A DNA stretch of 64,000 nucleotides, taken from positions 1 to 64,000 of the IMG/VR virus record IMGVR_UViG_3300020020_000028; one strand, given 5' to 3'. Positions 5,860-56,734 of the stretch are shown one piece after another. Origin of the DNA: a virus. Position 1 is the stretch's first letter. Each line of letters opens with the position of its first letter. A program made the position numbers and the translations under genes. The notes beneath the pieces are model-generated. The model worked only from the letters and a program-made list of their open reading frames with translations. It was not told the origin of the DNA and ran no database searches.

Positions 5860-7320
5860 TTAGTTGACCGTCTTCGACTGGAGTGCCTTCAGAGGCTCTG
5901 CGTACGGATTCGGAGGCGTGAAATCATCCTGCTTCACAGATGCGTGGCGTTCCTGAGGAATGCCACGTCCGCTGAAATCAGGAATCTCGACACGAGCGTA
6001 CGCCGCCAACTGCTTCAGTGCAGGCGTATTCATCGCCTTCAGTTCCTCTTCGGTATTCGCTCCGAGATCCTTCAACTGCGAAATGAGCGAACCGCGAAGA
6101 GCATCCTCTTCCGCCTTGTGGTGTTCGAGCAGCGTCTTGAAGAACGGTGGCGCCTTCGCCAACCAGTCCTCTTCGGACGGTGCCTGCTCTGCGGTCTTGA
6201 GACGCTCCTCAGCGACCTTTAGACGCGCATTGGTGTTCGTCAATTCGGTTTCGAGCTTGCTCGTGTTACGCTCGGCCGACTTACGCGCGTCCGACGCCGC
6301 TCGAAACTCTTCGAGTCGTGAGTCGCCGCAGGCTTCGAGCATTCCCTCGTCGCCGTCCTTGAACCCGCTGTACCGGTCAGTGACCAGTTCAGCGATCAAC
6401 TCTGCTCTCGTGCTCTTTTCCATTTTCCTGTCTCCTTGTTTGCAGCCGCAACCAGCGGCTTTCAGTTGCGGCTTAGCTGCCGCTGTCCTGCCCGAACCCG
6501 GTATCGTAGAACTATGACACCCGCACTCGGACGGCGCGGATATAGACGCCATCCGGATCTTCCCATTCCCATTACACGCTTCGCAGGGATTGCCTTTCAG
6601 ATTCCCCGACCCCTTGCACATCGGACAATCTTTCTTTTTCTTCACTCCACTTCCAACCTGTGCGCCGGGAACCATCGGAGCGAGAGTTCGAAGAAGATCA
6701 TGGACGTCATCGACGCACTCTAATTCCATTCGATCCGATAACATCCTCATCGATGCTGCGCGATGCGATCCACATCCCATCTCAATGGAACACGCACCTC
6801 GACCACCCGGAAGAAACGCCAGATGATCACCAACGACTTCCTTCCATGATGCTGTGTACTTCTTACCGTTGAATTCTCCAGGTTTATCATCCGTGACCAC
6901 GAACGCGCCTACAGACACTTCTTCCGATTCTCCTGAGAGCAATCGCTCGTACATCTCAGGGTGCAATTCCTTTGCACGCCTAGAATCGATCCACGCCTCG
7001 CAGAGCAACTTCTTCCCCTGCACACGAGGATTGAACACGAGTCCGATGCCGCTCTCCGCAAGAATGTCGGGACTATTCGCTGAACACTGCCGTCCATTCT
7101 TCTTCGGATGATAAAGTGTTGCGGGCTTCCTATCCCATGTCCTCGCATACTTCTCCAATGTGGACAGAGGCACAAATTCTGGTGTCTCGGCATTCACCGC
7201 ATGAATGACGCCTTCCATCAGTGCGACTACAGGTACCACGAGGTACGGTCGCCCGTCGTATGTGTCCATACGCACGGATCCTGTCGCGCCTCGAAGATGT
7301 AACGTTCTGATAGAAGACAT
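5860..7320 (-). CDS. Prohead protease (DUF2213-like) fused to scaffold, with CxxCxGxG zinc finger
   Basis: P.TLYHP, EVSVG and DHLAFLPGGRGACS motifs; CPMCKGSG/CEACNGNG; coiled-coil C-terminus. Confidence 0.8.
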   Translation of the reverse strand: MSSIRTLHLRGATGSVRMDTYDGRPYLVVPVVALMEGVIHAVNAETPEFVPLSTLEKYARTWDRKPATLYHPKKNGRQCSANSPDILAESGIGLVFNPRVQGKKLLCEAWIDSRRAKELHPEMYERLLSGESEEVSVGAFVVTDDKPGEFNGKKYTASWKEVVGDHLAFLPGGRGACSIEMGCGSHRAASMRMLSDRMELECVDDVHDLLRTLAPMVPGAQVGSGVKKKKDCPMCKGSGNLKGNPCEACNGNGKIRMASISAPSECGCHSSTIPGSGRTAAAKPQLKAAGCGCKQGDRKMEKSTRAELIAELVTDRYSGFKDGDEGMLEACGDSRLEEFRAASDARKSAERNTSKLETELTNTNARLKVAEERLKTAEQAPSEEDWLAKAPPFFKTLLEHHKAEEDALRGSLISQLKDLGANTEEELKAMNTPALKQLAAYARVEIPDFSGRGIPQERHASVKQDDFTPPNPYAEPLKALQSKTVN

Positions 7321-48500: not shown

Positions 48501-48749
48501 TCACATTCTTTCACGTATACGGGAGCTTGAAAATCGCTGCCGATGAAATCCGGAAAGCGAAACTCGGGGGCTTAAAGTGAACTGGTATGATGTGACGCTG
48601 ACGCGAGGAGGGCAGATTATCAACCGTGGTTGGCAACTGGCCATGACCGAGAAAGATCTCATCGAGCAAGCTCGCAAGAACGGGTTCAATATCGACATTC
48701 GTCTCATTGGGAGCGCACTCCCGCAATTTCAGACGCAAGAGATCCTTCA

Positions 48750-49370
48750 ATGACGTGGTTTACCTCTGATACCCACTTCGGACACGCGGCGATTCTAACG
48801 CATGGTCGCTACATCTTTGACAGTGTCGAAAATATGGATGCTGTGTTGATCAAGAATTGGAATGACCGCGTCGGCCTCCGCGATGATATCTATCATCTCG
48901 GGGACTTCAACTTCCGTTCGACGCGCACGACAGCGGAGTATCTTGGTGAATTGCGCGGACGGATTCATCTTATCGAAGGCAATCATGATCCGAAGTACGC
49001 ACTAAGATACCGTCAACTCTTTGCGAGCGTACAGCCAGTCAAGTATCTGAAGCTCGATGGAAAGCGCATCACGCTCTATCACTACGCACAACGTGTGTGG
49101 AGGGGTTCCAATCTCGGATCCTGGCACCTCTATGGACATAGCCACGGAGGGATCCCGGATCTCGGACGTTCGATGGACGTGGGTGTCGATGCACAGAGCT
49201 TTGCGCCCATCGAGTTCGCACAGGTGCGAGAGGCATTGAAGGACAGGCCGTTTACGTATCATCATCCGGACATGGAAATCGAGTGCGTGTGTGATGGTGG
49301 TCCGCAAGGTGAGGGCCTTGTGTCGATCCCTCATGCAGTGCATTGTCCGATGAGTAAGGAAGAGAGATAA
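48750..49370 (+). CDS. Calcineurin-like metallophosphoesterase
   Basis: SDTHFGH, LGDF, GNHD, HY and YGHSH motifs; start reassigned to ATG 48750. Confidence 0.9.
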   Translation: MTWFTSDTHFGHAAILTHGRYIFDSVENMDAVLIKNWNDRVGLRDDIYHLGDFNFRSTRTTAEYLGELRGRIHLIEGNHDPKYALRYRQLFASVQPVKYLKLDGKRITLYHYAQRVWRGSNLGSWHLYGHSHGGIPDLGRSMDVGVDAQSFAPIEFAQVREALKDRPFTYHHPDMEIECVCDGGPQGEGLVSIPHAVHCPMSKEER

Positions 49371-50531
49371 TGTTCGCCGTCCAAGATAAGCAGTGCGCCA
49401 CATGCATCTATCGAAAGAATTCACCTCTCGATCTGAAGGTGTTAGAGGCGCAAATTGCTGATCCGAAGATGGAAGGCTTTTTCATCGGCTATCGGATCTG
49501 CCATCATTCGAAAACCGCATGTTGCCGGGGATTCTGGAATCGACATAAAGATAAGTTCACGATGGGTCAGATCGCGCAGCGACTGGGGCTCGTGAAATTC
49601 GTGAAGGACGACGTTCATGCCAAAATCTGATAAGTGCGCCTGTGGGATTCGTATCAAGGCACATGCGCGGAAATCTCGTCGGAGGCAACTGCCGCACACT
49701 GGCCTCAAGACGGATCGGTTGGGCTATCCCCGGCCTCGGGCTGGAGCCCGGATCCGAAAGGAGGCTCTTCGGTTATTGAAGTTAGCTGAGGAAATATTTA
49801 AGGAATCAAAAGACTAGACAAGGCTTTTAACTTCTGTTAGAGTCTGGTGTCCATGAGCACTGAGCACCTTCGGATTGCCCTTGGACTGAAGCCACAGACG
49901 CCTTCGGGATGGGCTTTTTGGTTATTTTACTGGTCGCCATTTGCAAGGATGTGGAGACGTGCGACGGAGATCTGTAGACGATGGCCGTTCGCTGTTCGAC
50001 GGAGTAGACGATGAATCCGATAGTGGCAGTAGCAGCGATAGTCCTGATATCAGCCGTCGGGGCCTATCTGTTGGGACGGCGCTAAACTGGCACGAGGTTC
50101 CGCAAGCTCTCTACCTCTCATGGTCCCCGGCACGGCAATACGCATACTGCGCTGAGCGGGATCTGAGGGCCTCGATAGAGTTCGCGACATCTCCTGAGGA
50201 AGAAAAGTGGTTCTACGACCGAGCCGTCAGTTACAAGAGGATGATGGGAGCATCGATTGTAAACGTTGTAACAACTCCGGCTTCGTAGCCTACTGGGATG
50301 GTAGCGCATTGGCTGGAGAAGGATGTCCGGACTGTACAGGTAATGCGATGACGACGTACGAGGAACTGGAACAAGAGGCATTGAACGATCCTATCCTCCA
50401 TAGGTTTCTCACGCACTATCGTCGTGGTGATTGCTCGAAGGAAGAGGCGCTGATTGCAGCCTGTATCTGGCTCTCACGCGCAAGACGAAAGTTACTCAAA
50501 GAAGAAGCCGATAGAATTGCGAGACAGCCAC

Positions 50532-51050
50532 ATGGTTGAAAACACTGTAGAAGAATACGACAAGCAATCGTGGGGTCGAGGTTTGTGGGATCACGAACCA
50601 GATCGTGTCGAAGGTGAACATGCGGGATTCCCGACACTCGCTCGTCGTGGTCCGATGGGTTCGTGGTGCGGCTACGTGGCTGTGCCTCCGGGGCACTACG
50701 ATCACGGGATCTACTACGGAGAGGTCGATGGCGATCTCGATGTCCACGGGGGTCTGACGTATTCAGGCTTGTGTCATGGTGCGATCTGCCATGTCCCGAA
50801 GCCCGGTGAACCCGATAACGTCTGGTGGTTTGGGTTTGACTGCGGGCACTATCGTGACATCACGCCGGGGATGATGAAGTATCATTTCGGATCTGACGAG
50901 TATTCCACGTACAAGGATCTATCGTACGTGCAGGAAGAGATCAAGAAGCTCGCAGAGCAACTCGCAGAGCGAGCGAAGTGGGTGCGCGTCGATGTACATG
51001 CGCTCGCTCAGCGGTTGAAGGAAAAATGGACACGGGTCGCTGTCGAGTAG
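50532..51050 (+). CDS. Conserved phage hypothetical protein
   Basis: WCGYV.VP.GH, VHGGLTYS and WWFGFDCGH motifs; 3' end overlaps the first Y-like unit. Confidence 0.75.
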   Translation: MVENTVEEYDKQSWGRGLWDHEPDRVEGEHAGFPTLARRGPMGSWCGYVAVPPGHYDHGIYYGEVDGDLDVHGGLTYSGLCHGAICHVPKPGEPDNVWWFGFDCGHYRDITPGMMKYHFGSDEYSTYKDLSYVQEEIKKLAEQLAERAKWVRVDVHALAQRLKEKWTRVAVE

Positions 51051-51163
51051 GTTATCATTGCCAATGAGGAGGTCGCGGGTTCGAATCCCGTCACATGCCG
51101 TAACAGGATGTGTAGCTCAGTGGTAGAGCGCTTAAACACCTACTTACGCTCTTTATCCGTGTT
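51029..51163 (+). ncRNA. Y-RNA-like unit 1: YrlA-type permuted tRNA body plus Gly(GCC) anticodon hairpin
   Basis: Outer stem GACACGG/CCGTGTT; TCA-TTGCCAA-TGA; T-arm, closed acceptor CACAT/ATGTG, then D-arm. Confidence 0.8.
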
Positions 51164-51331
51164 ATGTTCGAAACTCTGTGTTGCCGTTGCTGCGTGAGCA
51201 TGTAAGAGACACGGATAGGGACCGCGTCACGGGCGGTTCCGATTTTATGACGTTGCAAGCCGTGATTACCCTGAGTCGCGCAAATCGTGAGGTTTGCTGG
51301 GTCTGTGGCCTATCGGCTTGGCGTCTCCAGT

Positions 51332-51473
51332 AAGACGTGGGTCGCTGTATTACGGTTCTCCTATGGGTCGCGGGTTCAAATCCCGTCATCGCGACGCCTA
51401 ACAAGCTATGCGATGTAGCTCAGTTGGTTAGAGCAATAGATAAAAGTCCGTAAGCACCTCTTATCCGCGTCTT
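51332..51473 (+). ncRNA. Y-RNA-like unit 2: YrlA-type permuted tRNA body
   Basis: Outer stem AAGACGTGG/CCGCGTCTT; T-arm (GTTCAAATC), closed acceptor CATCGC/GCGATG, then D-arm TAGCTCAGTTGGTTAGAGC. Confidence 0.8.
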
Positions 51474-51495
51474 TGTTCTTTGACAACTTAAATCA

Positions 51496-51555
51496 GTCGG
51501 AGGCGCATAGTGCGTGATGATCACACGCAGTAGGGAAACCTACCCTCCGGCACCA
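51496..51555 (+). ncRNA. D-armless mini tRNA-like RNA ending in ACCA
   Basis: GTCGGAGG/CCTCCGGC stem + ACCA; TGCGTG-ATGATCA-CACGCA; GTAGG-GAAA-CCTAC. Confidence 0.55.
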
Positions 51556-51560
51556 CTTAA

Positions 51561-51696
51561 TCCTCGGGTCGCATTGACATCGTTATCTCTTACCATACTC
51601 AAGAGGGTAGCTCAGTGGTAGAGCGTCCGATTTGTAATCGGAAGGTCGTGGGTTCGAATCCCACTCTAACGCGGTGTTGAATCACTTATCCGGGGA
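51561..51696 (+). ncRNA. Y-RNA-like unit 3: non-permuted tRNA-Thr(UGU)-like body lacking an acceptor end
   Basis: Outer stem TCCTCGG/CCGGGGA; D-arm, TCCGA-TTTGTAA-TCGGA, T-arm; acceptor stem only about 3 bp and no CCA. Confidence 0.8.
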
Positions 51697-51709
51697 GTTT
51701 TACAATTTC

Positions 51710-51779
51710 CGATTCGGGTCGATCAGATAGCGTTATCCTTAAGAGATAAAAATGCTGTCTACGTCACTTATCCGAATCG
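51710..51779 (+). ncRNA. Y-RNA-like unit 4: minimal, Leu(UAA) anticodon-loop cargo
   Basis: CGATTCGG/CCGAATCG; TTATC-CTTAAGA-GATAA. Confidence 0.75.
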
Positions 51780-51996
51780 ATTTTTCCGGGGCGGTTGATA
51801 TCAGAGTGCGAAAGCAACGCATAACGGCAGAAATGTCGGAGGACCCCGTCGCTAACTCGGGCGGGAACCCGGAAATGTGAGGTAACACAAAACCACTCGG
51901 TGCGCTCCCAACTATCGCTCTCTGGTGGAAAGTAGTGTTCGTAAGCCACGTGGGAATTAGTTCAGGCTAGGTTGCACGTGGGCCTCTTTTTGATCT

Positions 51997-52071
51997 GGGG
52001 CTATGCACCTCGCGAGAGGGGGCTGAATAAGGCGAAAGCCGGAGCGGGTGAAAATCCCGTAGGCTCCACCA
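51997..52071 (+). ncRNA. Non-canonical 75-nt tRNA-like RNA with alanine-type acceptor (G3.U70, ACCA) and no anticodon loop
   Basis: GGGGCT/GGCTCC-ACCA; GCGGG-TGAAAAT-CCCGT; two GNRA-capped hairpins. Confidence 0.55.
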
Positions 52072-52075
52072 GTCA

Positions 52076-52165
52076 GGAAGGCTGACCGAGCGGCATGGTG
52101 CCAGCTTGCTAAGCTGTGGCTTCGCAGAGATGCGATCAGGGGTTCGAGTCCCTTGCCTTCCGCCA
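52076..52165 (+). tRNA. tRNA-Ser(GCU)
   Basis: GGAAGGC/GCCTTCC-GCCA; loop TT-GCT-AA; long variable arm; GGTTCGAGTCC. Confidence 0.9.
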
Positions 52166-52170
52166 AAGTT

Positions 52171-52242
52171 TTCGACGGGTCGCTCGTGACAGGGTTATCA
52201 CTCCTAATGATTACCCCCTGCACAATTCACTTATCCGTCGAA
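52171..52242 (+). ncRNA. Y-RNA-like unit 5: minimal, Arg(CCU) anticodon-loop cargo
   Basis: TTCGACGG/CCGTCGAA; ATCA-CTCCTAA-TGAT. Confidence 0.75.
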
Positions 52243-52287
52243 CTCTCGGGGCTCTGCTCAAGGAGGTAGCATCCCCAATGATTTTGA

Positions 52288-52437
52288 ATCTCGGGTCGCA
52301 GTCGTAGAGTTATCCCAGGAACGAGTGCCCTTCGGGGCATGCGTGGTTCGAATCCCGCTCCTCTCGAATCAGTGAGAGGATGGCGAAACTGGCAGACGCG
52401 CTCGTATTTAGTTCTGCGGCGAATACTTATCCGAGAT
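52288..52437 (+). ncRNA. Y-RNA-like unit 6: permuted class II tRNA-Leu-like body
   Basis: ATCTCGG/CCGAGAT; ACGAG/CTCGT stem, variable arm TGCCC-TTCG-GGGCA, T-arm, closed acceptor TCCTCTC/GAGAGGA, Leu-type D-arm TGGCGAAACTGGCAGACGC. Confidence 0.8.
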
Positions 52438-52445
52438 GTGTTTCT

Positions 52446-52560
52446 CCACGGGTCGCGGCTGTATGGTTATCATTGGTTGAAACTCTGGCCTAAGCCGAAA
52501 GGCGTCAAGCCGGAGGGAGGTTCGAATCCTCAATATCCCATACGCACACTTTATCCGTGG
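52446..52560 (+). ncRNA. Y-RNA-like unit 7: long hairpin plus T-arm cargo
   Basis: CCACGG/CCGTGG; CTCTGGC/GCCGGAG; GAGG-TTCGAAT-CCTC. Confidence 0.75.
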
Positions 52561-52655
52561 GTTTGTAGGCAGATGAGCGCGATCTGCCGTCAGCCGGGAG
52601 AGACTACTCGTTGCGCTGGTTGCAACCATCAACGACGTTTCTCCCTTGCTGTTTC

Positions 52656-52748
52656 TCCGTGGGTCGCTGTTTGGAAGGTTATCTTTTTGCCAAAAAAAGG
52701 GAGTTGGGTGAAACCCCTGACACCCTTCTGACGATCTTTATCCACGGA
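52656..52748 (+). ncRNA. Y-RNA-like unit 8: Gly(GCC) anticodon hairpin plus T-loop-like hairpin
   Basis: TCCGTGG/CCACGGA; TTT-TTGCCAA-AAA; GGG-TGAAAC-CCC. Confidence 0.75.
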
Positions 52749-52753
52749 ACTTC

Positions 52754-52887
52754 TCAGCGGGTCGCCGGTGACGATTATCTTCTGTCGTAGGTTCGACTCC
52801 TACTCTGCTAGGCAACTAGTAGATAGCTCAGTTGGTAGAGCAAAGACGGTATCCACTCCGTTTCGTCGCTGACTCTTTATCCGCTGA
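52754..52887 (+). ncRNA. Y-RNA-like unit 9: YrlA-type permuted tRNA body plus extra hairpin
   Basis: TCAGCGG/CCGCTGA; GTAGG-TTCGACT-CCTAC, closed acceptor TCTGCTAG-GCAA-CTAGTAGA, D-arm. Confidence 0.8.
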
Positions 52888-52897
52888 ATTTTTTTCA

Positions 52898-52971
52898 ACT
52901 CAAGGCGTGGTGTTCTCTGAAAAGAGGCGCAGCTTCCGGAAGCTAGATCTGAAGTGACAGATCTCTTGAGT
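52898..52971 (+). ncRNA. Unclassified 74-nt four-way-junction RNA
   Basis: ACTCAAG/CTTGAGT closing three hairpins. Confidence 0.5.
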
Positions 52972-52977
52972 ATTTCT

Positions 52978-53045
52978 TTGACGGGTCGATGATTGAGGAT
53001 TATCTTATAACGATAAAAATCCTTAGTCGATCACTTATCCGTCAA
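52978..53045 (+). ncRNA. Y-RNA-like unit 10: minimal
   Basis: TTGACGG/CCGTCAA; TTATC-TTATAAC-GATAA, containing CT-TAT-AA (Ile(UAU)-like). Confidence 0.75.
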
Positions 53046-53055
53046 TTTCCGATTC

Positions 53056-53118
53056 TTGACGGGTCGAATGTGTAGGGTTATCTAGTTAATGATCCCTGCC
53101 GATTCACTTATCCGTCAA
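53056..53118 (+). ncRNA. Y-RNA-like unit 11: minimal
   Basis: TTGACGG/CCGTCAA; GTCGAATG box; ATC-TAGTTAAT-GAT. Confidence 0.75.
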
Positions 53119-53132
53119 CTCAAGATCGATAC

Positions 53133-53203
53133 GTCCGGGTCGATAGGGTAGGGTTACCATGATCACCAATCATCCACAGCCCTGCTTGACAACTTATCCG
53201 GAC
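53133..53203 (+). ncRNA. Y-RNA-like unit 12: minimal
   Basis: GTCCGG/CCGGAC; ATGA-TCACCAA-TCAT. Confidence 0.75.
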
Positions 53204-53210
53204 ACTGTTA

Positions 53211-53324
53211 GTAGAGGGTCGCGGTTTTATCGGTTATCAAGGTTCGACTCCTTCCTCACCCAACTCTGTGGGTGGGGAAGCCTGAAATGGTCAGGCACTC
53301 CGATGAACAATCTTTATCCTCTAC
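53211..53324 (+). ncRNA. Y-RNA-like unit 13: YrlA-type permuted tRNA body
   Basis: GTAGAGG/CCTCTAC; AAGG-TTCGACT-CCTT, closed acceptor CCTCACCCA/TGGGTGGGG, D-arm GCCT..TGG..AGGC. Confidence 0.8.
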
Positions 53325-53343
53325 GTTTTGAAAGGTGTGGGAC

Positions 53344-55071
53344 ATGACAGTTAACTACGCGAAGCACTACAACAAGAAGCAGACGCCGCAGAGCGAGAAG
53401 ATTCCGGGCGAGAAGCAGGTGGCGAACAACGCTGGAGGCTACGTCTACGAGGTAGACAAGTGGCAGCGTCTCGCACGGTTCTTGATCCTCGGCACGGACG
53501 GCGGCACGTACTACGTCAGCGAGCGAAAGCTCACGCGTGAGAATGCACAGGTTGTCGAAGCCTGTCTCGCGACGGACGGCGGACGTACGATTGCGGAGAT
53601 CATCGAGATCTCTCAGACTGGTCGTGCGCCGAAGAACGATCAGGCGGTCTTTGCACTGGCGCTTGCAGCCTCCGTGCAGGTTCCGGACGCTAGTGGTGTG
53701 TCCGCAGAGTCGATCCGTAGCATGGCGCTCGATGCACTGCCGAAGGTCTGCCGGATCCCGACGCATCTCTTTCAGTTCATGACGGCGATCAAGGCGATGC
53801 GTGGTAGCTCGCGTATGCTCCGTCGTGCACTCGGAGAGTGGTACTCGCAGTGGGACGCAAATAAGCTCGCCTACGAACTGGTGAAGTACCAGTCGCGCGA
53901 GGGATGGGCGAATCGTGACGTGCTGCGTCTCGCGCACCCGAAGATGTCCGCAGAACATCAGGCGGTGGTGCGATGGGCTGTCTGCGGCCATGAAGCTGCG
54001 GCATCTCCTGGCCCTCGTGAGGTGAAGCGCGCGAAGGAAGATACGCGCACGTCGCGCATCTATCAGCCGGTTGCTGATGTGCCGAACATCATCGCGGCCT
54101 TCGAGTTGGCCAAGACGAAGCCGCCGGTTGAATTGCTTGTGCGTTTGATCCGCGAGCATGGTCTGACGCGAGAGATGCTGCCGACGGAGTGTCTGAACGA
54201 GGTCGCGGTATGGGAGGCATTGCTCGAAAAGATGCCGCTCACGGCGATGATCCGCAATCTCGGCAAGATGTCTTCGTTGGGGATCTTCGAGCCGTTGAAG
54301 TCCAGCGCATGGTCCAAGCACGTGGTCGAGAGGATCACCTCTCAGGAGAACTTGCGGAAGTCTCGCGTGCATCCGCTGTTCATCTTGAATGCGATGAAGA
54401 CCTATGCGCAGGGCCACGGTGACAAGGGGTCGTTGAAGTGGACCCCGGCTGCGAAGATCGTGGACGCGCTCGATGCGGCGTTCTACGAAGCCTTCGGCAA
54501 CGTGGAGCCCACCGGCAAAAACGTGATGCTGGCGCTCGACGTGAGTGGATCGATGGGTTCGCTCATCGGTGGCACGAGTCTGTCCTGCCGTGAGGCGTGT
54601 GCGGCACTTGCACTCGTCACGCAGGCTGTCGAAGACAACGTGCAGATCGTTGGGTTCACCAACGGCGGGTCTGTGGCTCGACGTTCGCAGTGGGGTGGAT
54701 ACCTGAGCGGGATTTCTCCGCTCAAGATCTCGAAGCGTCAGCGTCTCGATGACGTAGTGAAGTACATCGCTGGACTGAACTTCGGAGGCACGGACTGCGC
54801 CCTGCCGATGATCTACGCGGAGAGCGAGAAGCTCGATGTCGATGGGTTCGTGGTCTACACGGACAACGAGACGTGGGCGGGAGATATCCACCCGTCGCAG
54901 GCGCTGCGAAGCTACCGAGCGAAGCAGAACAAGCCGGAGGCGGCACAGGTAGTCGTGGGCATGACGGCGAGTGGATTCACGATTGCTTCTCCTGATGATC
55001 CTAGAACACTTGATGTGGTAGGCTTCGATCTCGCCACTCCGACGGCGATTTCGGCGTTTATCAAAGGGTAA
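53344..55071 (+). CDS. rsr: Ro60/Rsr orthologue (TROVE domain + vWA domain)
   Basis: NNAGGY...RLARFLILGTDGGTYY, LVKYQSREGW..RDVLRLAHP, MPLTAMIRNLGKM, vWA MIDAS DVSGSM, GGTDCALPM, TDNETW, DVVGFD. ATG 53344 follows GAAAGG. Confidence 0.95.
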   Translation: MTVNYAKHYNKKQTPQSEKIPGEKQVANNAGGYVYEVDKWQRLARFLILGTDGGTYYVSERKLTRENAQVVEACLATDGGRTIAEIIEISQTGRAPKNDQAVFALALAASVQVPDASGVSAESIRSMALDALPKVCRIPTHLFQFMTAIKAMRGSSRMLRRALGEWYSQWDANKLAYELVKYQSREGWANRDVLRLAHPKMSAEHQAVVRWAVCGHEAAASPGPREVKRAKEDTRTSRIYQPVADVPNIIAAFELAKTKPPVELLVRLIREHGLTREMLPTECLNEVAVWEALLEKMPLTAMIRNLGKMSSLGIFEPLKSSAWSKHVVERITSQENLRKSRVHPLFILNAMKTYAQGHGDKGSLKWTPAAKIVDALDAAFYEAFGNVEPTGKNVMLALDVSGSMGSLIGGTSLSCREACAALALVTQAVEDNVQIVGFTNGGSVARRSQWGGYLSGISPLKISKRQRLDDVVKYIAGLNFGGTDCALPMIYAESEKLDVDGFVVYTDNETWAGDIHPSQALRSYRAKQNKPEAAQVVVGMTASGFTIASPDDPRTLDVVGFDLATPTAISAFIKG

Positions 55072-55097: not shown

Positions 55098-55142
55098 GCG
55101 GGATTCGCTGAGGTGAGGAGCCTCGGCGGTCCCGCATCTTTT
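55098..55142 (+). terminator. Hairpin with short U-tract after Ro60 (terminator or processing site)
   Basis: GCGGGAT..CGCTGAGG/CCTCGGCG..GTCCCGC followed by ATCTTTT. Confidence 0.45.
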
Positions 55143-55217
55143 GGCCGGTAGCTCAGTTGGTAGAGCGCACGGCTGTTAACCGTGTGGTCGCAAGTTCGAA
55201 TCTTGCTCGGCCAGCCA
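55142..55217 (+). tRNA. tRNA-Asn(GUU)
   Basis: 76 nt; TGGCCGG/TCGGCCA-GCCA; CACGG-CTGTTAA-CCGTG; canonical D and T arms. Confidence 0.93.
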
Positions 55218-55942: not shown

Positions 55943-56734
55943 ATGCAACAAACCAAAGACATGGCGGAGCGGAACACGATTCTTCGCGTTCCTGCCGGTA
56001 GTACTCTCCACGGGTTGCATATCCCCGGCACAGACGATCAGGACGAGGTCGGTGTCTGTATCGAGGATATTCAATCCGCGATTGGATTCTCGGAGTTCGA
56101 GCAATTCATTTACCGCACGGCTGCTGAACGTGAAGGTAAGCACGATGCGCCGAGTCAGGCTGGCGATCTTGATCTGACCATCTTCAGTCTGCGAAAATTC
56201 TTGCGTCTTGCGATGCAGGGCAATCCCCAGATTCTGCAATGCTTGTTCGTGCCTCAATCTCTGTGCCTACAACGTGATTCACGTGGCGCGCAGTTACAGG
56301 AGATGGCGCCGTTGATCGTGAGTCGTCAAGCGGGTGCTCGGTATCTTGGGTACCTTGAGGCGCAACGGCAACGACTCCTCGGAGAACGGGGTCAGAAGAA
56401 AACGAATCGTCCGGAACTCGAAGCCAAACACGGCTTCGATACTAAGTACGCGATGCACATCTTGCGCCTGGGTTTTCAAGGTGTGGAATTGATGTCCACC
56501 GGTCGTCTCACGTTGCCGATGAACGAAGAGGATCGAAAGTTCACCTACGCTGTTCGTTGCGGTGAAATTCCGTTACAAGATGCACTGACCAAAGCCGGGG
56601 AACTGGAACGTCAGATCAAAGATCTACTCCACGACGCACCAATTCCCGCACAACCCGCGCGTGAAGAAATCGAAGCGTGGATGGTATCGATGTATCTGGA
56701 AAATTGGAAGGCGCGTGAAACGGTTCATGCCTGA
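55943..56734 (+). CDS. Pol-beta-superfamily nucleotidyltransferase (RlaP/YcgL-like)
   Basis: GSTLHGL....DDQDEVGV (GS + DxD), KFLRLAMQGNP..L..LF, FDTKYAMHILRL. Confidence 0.85.
   Translation: MQQTKDMAERNTILRVPAGSTLHGLHIPGTDDQDEVGVCIEDIQSAIGFSEFEQFIYRTAAEREGKHDAPSQAGDLDLTIFSLRKFLRLAMQGNPQILQCLFVPQSLCLQRDSRGAQLQEMAPLIVSRQAGARYLGYLEAQRQRLLGERGQKKTNRPELEAKHGFDTKYAMHILRLGFQGVELMSTGRLTLPMNEEDRKFTYAVRCGEIPLQDALTKAGELERQIKDLLHDAPIPAQPAREEIEAWMVSMYLENWKARETVHA

Follow-up and report, generated by a model that had tools for sequence, protein, structure and literature searches.

In the first 64 kb of a 73,960-bp phage record from soil (IMG/VR record IMGVR_UViG_3300020020_000028; these 64 kb are referred to below as the window), a 2.3-kb stretch of the plus strand lies directly upstream of a gene for Ro60. 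The stretch probably holds 13 distinct Y RNA genes in tandem, whose products serve the Ro60 of the phage itself, and we put the likelihood of this at roughly 70%. Ro60 is a major human autoantigen with Y RNAs as its obligate partners, and the roles of the variable modules of these RNAs are largely open. The units were identified as Y RNAs by their linkage to Ro60, by a constant handle that matches the known Ro60 site, and by the arm order of the bacterial Y RNA YrlA in several bodies. As in Y RNAs, the two ends of each unit pair, a bulged-C helix is present, the length is 63–150 nucleotides (nt), the build is modular, and the units stand near Ro60 on the same strand. The array appears to be the largest and most diverse case of a widespread and apparently undescribed pattern of Y RNA arrays.

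The units, numbered 1 to 13 along the plus strand, were delimited by pairing occurrences of GGGTCG with occurrences of TTATCC. The plus strand of the window carries 22 GGGTCG, 14 of them within 51034–53216, and 23 TTATCC, 15 of them within 51153–53314. Pairing of these motifs gave exactly 13 units at 51029–53324, the same coordinates as in an initial annotation made from the letters alone, which had proposed 13 units with a constant scaffold and a variable body. Each unit begins with a unit-specific outer stem of 4–7 bp, followed by GGGU, a bulged C and a G. The next 8–10 nt supply the 5′ half of a variable 6–9-bp inner stem and lead to the motif G/A-UU-A/C-U/C-C, which reads GUUAUC in 8 of the 13 units, and then to the body. 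On the 3′ side, the second strand of the inner stem is followed by 4–8 unpaired nt, (C/U)UUAUCC and the outer stem. The core GGGUCG/UUAUCC is invariant across the array and consists of a 4-bp helix GGGU/AUCC, the bulged C and then a G·U pair. The pairing around a bulged C, also proposed in the initial annotation, held in all 13 units both in the folds and in the motif pairing. This architecture is that of the metazoan Ro60 site GGUC-C-GA/UUGACC. The minimum-free-energy folds of all 13 units were closed by a terminal stem, with z-scores from −1.2 to −4.7, and in units 4 and 10 the UUAUC is paired with a downstream GAUAA around a 7-nt loop. Seven of the 12 junctions between units are only 5–14 nt long, and unit 13 ends at 53324, 19 nt before the Ro60 ATG at 53344, as had been stated. 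The U-rich spacers that had been described were confirmed in part: U runs follow units 3, 4, 9, 10 and 13, and the remaining spacers are mixed.

The pairing of the outer stems was examined in the 5 nt flanking GGGTCG and TTATCC. In total, 64 of 65 positions pair. When the partners were swapped between units, a mean of 2.37 of 5 positions paired, and the observed value was reached in none of 100,000 permutations. Twelve distinct outer helices occur among the 13 units, and only units 10 and 11 share one, so the earlier description of outer stems that differ yet always re-pair, with this sole sharing, proved accurate. In an alignment of the 13 units, 98.6% of the pair cells were standard, versus 66% when shuffled and about 40% when slid by 1–3 columns. 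A model-fitted alignment of this kind favours structure, and the anchor-based count of 64/65 is independent of the fitting. Compensatory (two-sided) changes were seen in 13 of 17 pairs within the array, the four invariant pairs being GGGU/AUCC. A set of 131 distinct units of other loci showed 93.7% pairing versus 60%, and 15 of 17 pairs were compensatory, the core helix included. In other loci the four core pairs switch jointly, being GGGU/AUCC, GGGC/GCCC, GAGC/GCUC or GAGU/AUUC, and the G after the bulged C stands opposite U in 94 units and opposite C in 26. Covariation was significant in both stems, in the array as well as in the other loci, including the inner stem for which it had been noted. 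The identity of the core was 0.81–0.89 within a locus versus 0.67 between loci; the corresponding values for the variable stems were 0.46 and 0.41. The similarity of the core within loci fits a locus-specific reader of the core, with shared descent as an alternative explanation of these sequences.

The units were also sought by rules and by models. A strict rule detector, requiring a terminal helix of 7 bp or more, a bulged C-G, a GUUAUC-like motif and an inner stem of 5 bp or more, was run on the 73,960-bp genome and returned exactly the same 13 units, with none on the minus strand. It was used for the window genome only, and it misses real units elsewhere (for example, all of those in locus L070). 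A looser rule-based detector was discarded because it gave 57 minus-strand matches. A first MAFFT alignment of the short units placed two members wrongly, and these were left out; RNAalifold there recovered only the outer stem. A covariance model (R1) was built from eight short units; it recovered just 8 of the 13 units and was replaced by a second model (R2), rebuilt from the 85 matches of R1 in 72 loci. With filters off, R2 found 13 of 13 units at 31.7–70.5 bits, the next best match in 6 kb scoring 10.1 bits. Units 1, 3, 6, 9 and 13 were outside the training set of R2 and were still found.

The linkage of the scaffold to Ro60 was then measured beyond the window. R2 was searched, at E up to 0.1, against 73 sources, namely the window, one isolate and 71 IMG/VR loci with Ro60 relatives at 35–51% identity. 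All 228 matches were on the Ro60 strand and none was on the opposite strand; nearly all lay no more than about 1.7 kb upstream or directly downstream of Ro60. The scaffold was present in about 60 of 72 phage loci, and 11 loci had none. The 13 copies of the window are the largest array among the loci surveyed, followed by nine (L039), eight (L043 and L040), seven (L070) and six copies (L057, five upstream and one further downstream); L051, L047, L036 and L017 carry five each, and many other loci carry two to four. Species genomes of bacteria and archaea, mostly metagenome-assembled genomes of Gemmatimonadota, Myxococcota, Armatimonadota and Chloroflexota, contributed 80 loci, in which 140 matches were obtained, again all on the Ro60 strand, with top counts of nine (L153) and six (L135). 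Cultured actinophages gave 2–5 matches in five of six cases: three units in Mycobacterium phage I3, two each in Streptomyces phage Birchlyn, Mycobacterium phage Sparky and Gordonia phage Cashline, and four to five in Gordonia phage Forza, where they are scattered among tRNAs and a transfer-messenger RNA (tmRNA). The Mycobacterium prophage prophiGD43A-5 gave three weak matches of 18.9–19.7 bits. The model search proposed for finding arrays beside TROVE genes therefore recovered them in many phages and bacteria.

The reverse question was addressed by a context-free scan of IMG/VR for CGGGTCG-N8-12-GGTTATC, in which 80 loci were examined. Each of the nine loci that were confirmed by the covariance model had a TROVE gene on its contig, in the same orientation, and no confirmed unit was found away from a TROVE gene in these 80 loci. 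Seven helix-closing matches without TROVE had no match to the model, and their number is about that expected by chance. Arrays unlinked to TROVE, fixed beforehand as the outcome that would speak against the proposal, did not appear in this motif-first sample. The computational checks suggested in the initial annotation all spoke for it.

Some of these loci showed further features. In phage I3 (L073 2535–2949; NC_067270.1 129525–129939), the scaffold matches at 2577–2651, 2675–2820 and 2853–2924 lie upstream of the Ro-like gene and overlap two coding sequences for hypothetical proteins, genes 241 and 242; to judge from the scaffold matches, these are probably RNA genes called as proteins. Ro60 and the Y units stand within dense tRNA clusters in many phages (L057, L061, L019, L016, L048 and L077), and at L057 4733–5896 Y units alternate with tRNAs at gaps of 0–10 nt. 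Sparky has a tRNA-Ser(GCU) upstream of Ro and Forza a tRNA-Asn just downstream of it, both as in the window.

The bodies of the units were compared with tRNAs and with YrlA. In unit 1 (51029–51163, 135 nt, 34.5 bits with R2), unit 2 (51332–51473, 142 nt, 31.7 bits) and unit 9 (52754–52887, 134 nt, 33.9 bits, fold z-score −4.2), the body runs from a T arm through a closed acceptor to a D arm, which is the YrlA order, as seen in the model alignment and in an arm scan. Unit 6 (52288–52437, 150 nt, 34.6 bits) and unit 13 (53211–53324, 114 nt, 35 bits, z-score −4.7) follow this order by inspection, and unit 6 does so also by ARAGORN on its re-permuted body. The order was not found in units 3, 4, 5, 7, 8, 10, 11 and 12. 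The start of unit 1 overlaps the last 22 nt of the upstream phrog_2164 open reading frame (ORF), and its body is recognisably the same as that of the YrlA-type units of mycobacteriophages I3 and Sparky. Unit 13 consists of a T arm, a closed hairpin of 8–9 bp and a class-II-like D hairpin. Unit 9 has an 8-bp closed acceptor hairpin with a GCAA loop, an extra hairpin after the D arm and a U7 run immediately 3′ of the unit. After re-permutation ARAGORN called a tRNA in it, taking the extra hairpin for a weak anticodon arm; the topology of unit 9 is uncertain, as the YrlA model pairs the hairpin region differently.

Unit 6 carries a class-II tRNA-Leu(CAG)-like body that is circularly permuted, the anticodon loop being opened into the internal loop of the Y scaffold. 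It starts with a long variable arm and continues with a T arm, a 7-bp acceptor that an 8-nt loop closes, and finally a D arm of Leu type. When the body was re-joined at ...CUCGU-AU | CAGGA-ACGAG... and the acceptor loop was opened, with an ACCA end added by us, ARAGORN called a class-II tRNA-Leu(CAG). A scan of junctions showed that 230 of 750 yield some tRNA call. On these sequence comparisons the body of unit 6 can firmly be called tRNA-like, and the reading of its anticodon is less firm. ARAGORN on all circular permutations of whole bodies gave nothing useful, and explicit re-joining was needed. Unit 3 (51561–51696, 136 nt, 38.4 bits) has an unpermuted tRNA-Thr-like body with a D arm, an anticodon arm (UGU; loop UUUGUAA) and a T arm, in which the Y scaffold substitutes for most of the acceptor stem and no full acceptor is present. 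It matched the Rfam tRNA model at 56.8 bits over model positions 6–65 only, the full cloverleaf of that family (RF00005), with a 7-bp acceptor and free ends, is absent from it, and ARAGORN made no tRNA call on it. Unit 7 (52445–52561, 117 nt, 34.6 bits) has a T arm and another branched hairpin but no D arm, with a weak match to tRNA-Sec at 17.4 bits.

The remaining units are plain hairpins without a tRNA-like part. Unit 4 (51710–51779, 70 nt; 74.9 bits with R1 and 63.7 with R2, z-score −4.2), unit 5 (52171–52242, 72 nt, 62 bits, z-score −3.8), unit 10 (52978–53045, 68 nt, 70.5 bits), unit 11 (53056–53118, 63 nt, 54.3 bits) and unit 12 (53133–53203, 71 nt, 41.4 bits), in which GUUACC replaces GUUAUC, are short hairpins, and unit 8 (52656–52748, 93 nt, 46.4 bits) has a longer non-tRNA hairpin body. 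Among the best 131 distinct units of all loci, a sample biased toward short units, 92 had no tRNA arm, 22 a T arm only, 14 the YrlA order (T then D), two a D arm only, and one, unit 3 of the window, the tRNA order (D then T). A comparison of bodies between phages found little in common beyond the T and D arm motifs, and many arrays again combine units of the YrlA type with units of the hairpin type. ARAGORN tRNAs (Leu-AAG, Lys-UUU and Arg-UCG) were seen in or overlapping Y units at L070 5614–5689, L051 5526–5603 and L046 5673–5747, so that tRNAs called by such tools may coincide with Y-scaffold units elsewhere too.

Other RNAs share the stretch. A genuine tRNA-Ser(GCU) lies inside the array at 52076–52165 (+) (ARAGORN; Rfam tRNA, 44.9 bits); together with the tRNA-Asn(GUU) directly 3′ of Ro60 at 55142–55217 (+) (ARAGORN and Rfam), it is one of the only two true tRNAs here. 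Four nt 5′ of tRNA-Ser, a 75-nt cloverleaf-like RNA without a Ro site was found at 51997–52071 (+) by its minimum-free-energy fold. Its acceptor, GGGGCU/AGGCUCC, contains G3·U70, and the ACCA end is encoded (compare tmRNA or tRNA-Ala). Two tetraloop hairpins stand where a tRNA has its D and anticodon arms, and the T-like arm has the loop UGAAAAU; the RNA matched the ends of Rfam tmRNA at 8.7 bits (E=1), and ARAGORN made no call on it. Several spacers are structured as well, all on the plus strand. The spacer at 51164–51331 (z-score −2.5), without a Ro site, contains a hairpin, a terminator-like hairpin (51218–51240 plus a U run) and a closing stem with three hairpins (51248–51331), and the spacer at 52888–52977 takes the same closing-stem form, again with three hairpins. 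The spacer at 52562–52655 (−41.1 kcal/mol, z-score −4.6) folds into two strong hairpins and lacks a Ro site, and further structured spacers are at 51474–51560 and 51780–51996. No Ro site and no Rfam match were found in the long structured spacers. Promoter and terminator scans gave site numbers no higher than in shuffled sequences.

The array sits in an ORF-poor region of 2.3 kb, with no credible ORF, between the phrog_2164 ORF (50454–51050) and the Ro60 gene. The phage record is about 70% complete (CheckV) and has a G+C content of 53%; its structural genes are on the minus strand, and the plus strand from about 36 kb carries replication and early genes. No close relative of the phage was found among isolates, and a large minus-strand ORF in the structural region (5860–7320) matched Brevundimonas phages weakly. 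The Ro60 gene (53344–55071, +) is intact and encodes 575 aa with a TROVE and a vWA domain, both exceeding the Pfam cut-offs (PF05731, 7.9e-50, 170.7 bits; PF25045, vWA_Ro60, 4.1e-55, 186.6 bits). Against the PDB, it matched 9nen (3.9e-111), 1yvp (4.3e-108) and 2nvo (1.4e-101) over about 95% or more of the query, being equally close to vertebrate Ro60 and to Rsr of Deinococcus radiodurans. On either side of the Ro60/Y locus stand a metallophosphoesterase gene, upstream of the array at 48630–49370 (+) (phrog_547; weak Pfam Metallophos match), and a gene for an RlaP-family nucleotidyltransferase, of an RNA-repair-associated Pol-beta family, at 55943–56734 (+) (PF10127, 8.3e-26; phrog_388, 3.2e-58). 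RtcB and ATP-dependent RNA ligase families were not found in the 73,960-bp record, at its completeness of about 70%. A 732-aa DNA methyltransferase is encoded further downstream (60217–62415, +), with matches to N6_N4_Mtase and other methylases. The same phage was seen at low depth in other soil samples, with exact fragments in two further ones. A soil metagenome run of another study (X5) contained a diverged relative of units 6, 8–9 and 12–13; its contigs span window positions 52654–52891, 52315–52443 and 53123–53254, with substitutions, and with insertions between units 8 and 9.

If the stretch is an array of Y RNA genes, these data suggest that one Ro60 ring is fitted with many RNA adaptors; the loading of the ring with a library of RNAs, as put forward in the initial annotation, is what we infer from the sequences. 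In such a mechanism, the array would be transcribed rightward with the neighbouring genes, as one precursor or a few, with tRNA-Ser included, and host tRNA and RNA processing enzymes would cut the precursor at the short spacers. Processing at these sites is proposed because 7 of 12 junctions are short, a tRNA lies in the array, Y units alternate with tRNAs in L057, and there is a precedent in Mycobacterium smegmatis. The constant handle would then let the Ro60 ring bind and stabilise each unit, so that as many as 13 different Ro60 ribonucleoproteins (RNPs) would form. The bodies would act as adaptors or gates, for which RYPER in D. radiodurans and the Ro60-Yrl-PNPase complex of phage phiLo are precedents. 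The tRNA-shaped units 1, 2, 3, 6, 7, 9 and 13 could recruit or occupy proteins that recognise the tRNA elbow, with PNPase (as in RYPER), tRNA-modifying enzymes, RNase P and the enzyme that adds CCA as candidate partners, and the hairpin units could work like YrlB or Yrn2. The distinct outer stems would most simply serve the self-folding of each unit in a polycistronic precursor and reduce recombination between repeats.

The comparison with Rfam that had been suggested gave matches below threshold. At gathering thresholds only tRNAs were reported, and a permissive search was then used. YrlA (RF02553) aligned end to end with unit 9 (45.6 bits), unit 2 (43.2 bits) and unit 1 (38 bits), with E from 2e-8 to 4e-6. 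The nematode stem-bulge RNA (sbRNA) family RF01656, made up of Y RNA homologues, matched unit 11 (25.3 bits), unit 10 (20.1 bits) and unit 12 (16.5 bits) below its gathering score of 38, and these alignments run through the same blocks, including GGGUUAUC. YrlA matches units 9, 2 and 1, and sbRNA weakly matches short units, with all of these scores below gathering.

Several points weigh against an array of 13 Y RNA genes used as adaptors. The YrlA gathering score of 69 bits was reached by no unit, and the other ten units had no match to this family; the metazoan Y_RNA family (RF00019) had no match at E up to 10 within 50900–53400. In the scaffold itself, changes at the pair formed by the G that follows the bulged C are one-sided, and a pairing of the position next to the G·U pair was rejected as not consistent. 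Five spacers of 87–391 nt fold strongly, with z-scores to −4.6, and these structured spacers, together with the terminator-like hairpin, make a single precursor uncertain and indicate that other RNAs share the locus. The runs that contain the stretch are of soil DNA, with no RNA run among those listed. Finally, the binding of different partners by different bodies, and with it the adaptor role, is our inference from the sequences, on which the recruiting of enzymes, the soaking up of nucleases and RNA repair are alternatives for the tRNA-shaped bodies.

In another view of the bodies, the Y RNAs bound by Ro60 are chiefly tRNA decoys or sensors. Their tRNA bodies (Leu-CAG, Thr-UGU and others) would be shown to tRNA-cleaving defence nucleases of the host or to an RNA-repair set made up of Ro60, RlaP and the phosphoesterase, and tethering of an exoribonuclease would not be the main job. 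The body of unit 6 would suit this, being a complete tRNA-Leu(CAG) opened in the anticodon loop between positions 33 and 34, as would the intact anticodon arm in unit 3 and the RlaP nucleotidyltransferase and metallophosphoesterase flanking the locus. Ro60 loci also stand usually within phage tRNA clusters, and Ro60 with a tRNA-like partner has been proposed as a phage RNA-repair platform (PMC7824862). However, 6 of the 13 units have no tRNA-like part, the anticodon of unit 6 depends on the junction chosen, neither RtcB nor an RNA ligase was found in the incomplete record, and no nuclease target is known for the host of the phage. We consider a chiefly decoy or sensor role unlikely.

The identity of the handle in all 13 units, with stems that differ, could also be explained by dosage or robustness. 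Here the array would simply supply many copies of the Ro60 handle, the stems having drifted against recombination or misfolding and the bodies being neutral leftovers of captured tRNAs. The low conservation of bodies between phages, apart from the T and D arm motifs, and the resemblance of units 4, 10 and 11 to recent paralogues agree with this. On the other hand, the bodies fold stably (z-scores to −4.7), the YrlA-type body of unit 1 is conserved as far as mycobacteriophages, and in many arrays YrlA-type units again stand beside hairpin-type ones; we consider dosage or robustness an unlikely main reason for the multiplicity. That the units are unrelated to Ro60, as a degenerate tRNA cluster or repeat-bounded regulatory or terminator elements, is very improbable: a real tRNA, tRNA-like pieces and U runs after several units do occur in the region, but a tRNA was called for one unit region only, the constant handle fits the known architecture of the Ro60 site, and in about 130 independent loci all matches lay on the Ro60 strand, with no unit confirmed by the covariance model away from a TROVE gene in the motif-first scan.

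An array of Y RNA genes of this size would provide a natural experiment on how the body determines partner and function, with 13 bodies on one handle beside the phage's own Ro60. Organisms described so far have one to four Y RNAs, with up to four in vertebrates, and arrays, commonly of 2–9 units, are the rule beside the present Ro60 clade. The smaller arrays in cultured mycobacteriophages and in Gordonia and Streptomyces phages make the question testable at the bench, and reference phage genomes list some of the units as hypothetical proteins. Our full-text literature searches turned up no report of Y RNA genes in tandem arrays, none of a Y scaffold carrying unpermuted or class-II tRNA bodies, and none of a UUAUC motif in Y RNAs from prokaryotes. 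The earlier suggestion that an array of this size and diversity is undescribed agrees with this search. Arrays are not confined to this phage: 4–9 units are frequent elsewhere, and the 13 units of the window stand at the upper end of a general, apparently undescribed pattern.

The UUAUC motif at the end of the upper stem, read from alignment columns 28–32, had T, T, A, T and C in 100, 100, 95, 89 and 97% of 150 scaffold matches, in an alignment whose model itself favours the motif. Both sbRNAs and vertebrate Y RNAs are known to carry a conserved UUAUC where the loop begins (Kowalski and Krude 2015, PMC4726728). A prokaryotic scaffold that shares UUAUC and the two-stranded bulged-C helix with animals is relevant to how the Ro60 RNP arose and to what UUAUC does. 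A broader joint reading, tentative and rather doubtful, would see an undescribed phage and bacterial Y family with these two metazoan hallmarks and, in the window, a 13-member panel displaying tRNA bodies as decoys, sensors or repair templates against tRNA-targeting immunity. Grafting of the tRNA bodies would have taken place at the anticodon loop in unit 6, at the acceptor end in unit 3 and perhaps at the variable region in unit 9. If this were true, the Ro60-Y RNA pair would have a common origin across domains or would have been horizontally transferred, and UUAUC would be part of the Ro60 RNP and not specific to eukaryotic DNA replication. According to a review, there is no homology between the Y RNAs of bacteria and the vertebrate clades.

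The proposed Y RNA array was compared with the known Ro60 systems. In bacteria, Chen et al. described 355 YrlAs in 254 bacteria and 22 phages, with about two Y RNAs per characterised species (PMC4201824). M. smegmatis encodes YrlA and YrlB upstream of rsr and makes both from one precursor, in which RNase P cuts YrlA (PMC4201824). Like YrlA and YrlB, the units of the array adjoin rsr/Ro60 on the same strand, carry the 5′ motif G-N-C-G-A, include the module of T arm, closed acceptor and D arm, and are accompanied by a second, hairpin-type RNA; unit 1 is a clear counterpart of the mycobacteriophage YrlA. The array differs from these one or two RNAs by its 13 units, by the UUAUC motif and by class-II, unpermuted and T-arm-only bodies. 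Moreover, its Ro site shows conservation and covariation on both strands; for Salmonella and M. smegmatis, the 5′ strand alone was recognisable (PMC4201824).

With metazoan Y RNAs and sbRNAs, the units share a lower stem formed by the ends, the 4-bp helix, the bulged C and the G·U pair, an upper stem ending in G-G-UUAUC at the loop, a variable loop, and organisation in small paralogue families, of which humans have four Y RNAs and Caenorhabditis elegans 18 sbRNAs (PMC4726728). In contrast to these dispersed genes of RNA polymerase III, they form a tandem array beside a protein gene and many have tRNA-like bodies. The Ro60 of Thermus phage phiLo binds two upstream Yrl RNAs and host PNPase in vitro (PMC12135203). 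The window resembles phiLo in having a phage Ro60 with Y-like RNAs immediately upstream, but in phiLo two RNAs (Yrl1 and Yrl2) were found by a CGAA motif, and no array or diversity of tRNA bodies was reported. Yrn1 and Yrn2 of D. radiodurans are similar, as both helix strands are kept and several small RNAs lie upstream of rsr, and in RYPER a tRNA-like module tethers PNPase. D. radiodurans differs in having two Y RNAs, another arm order and a cellular stress-response locus.

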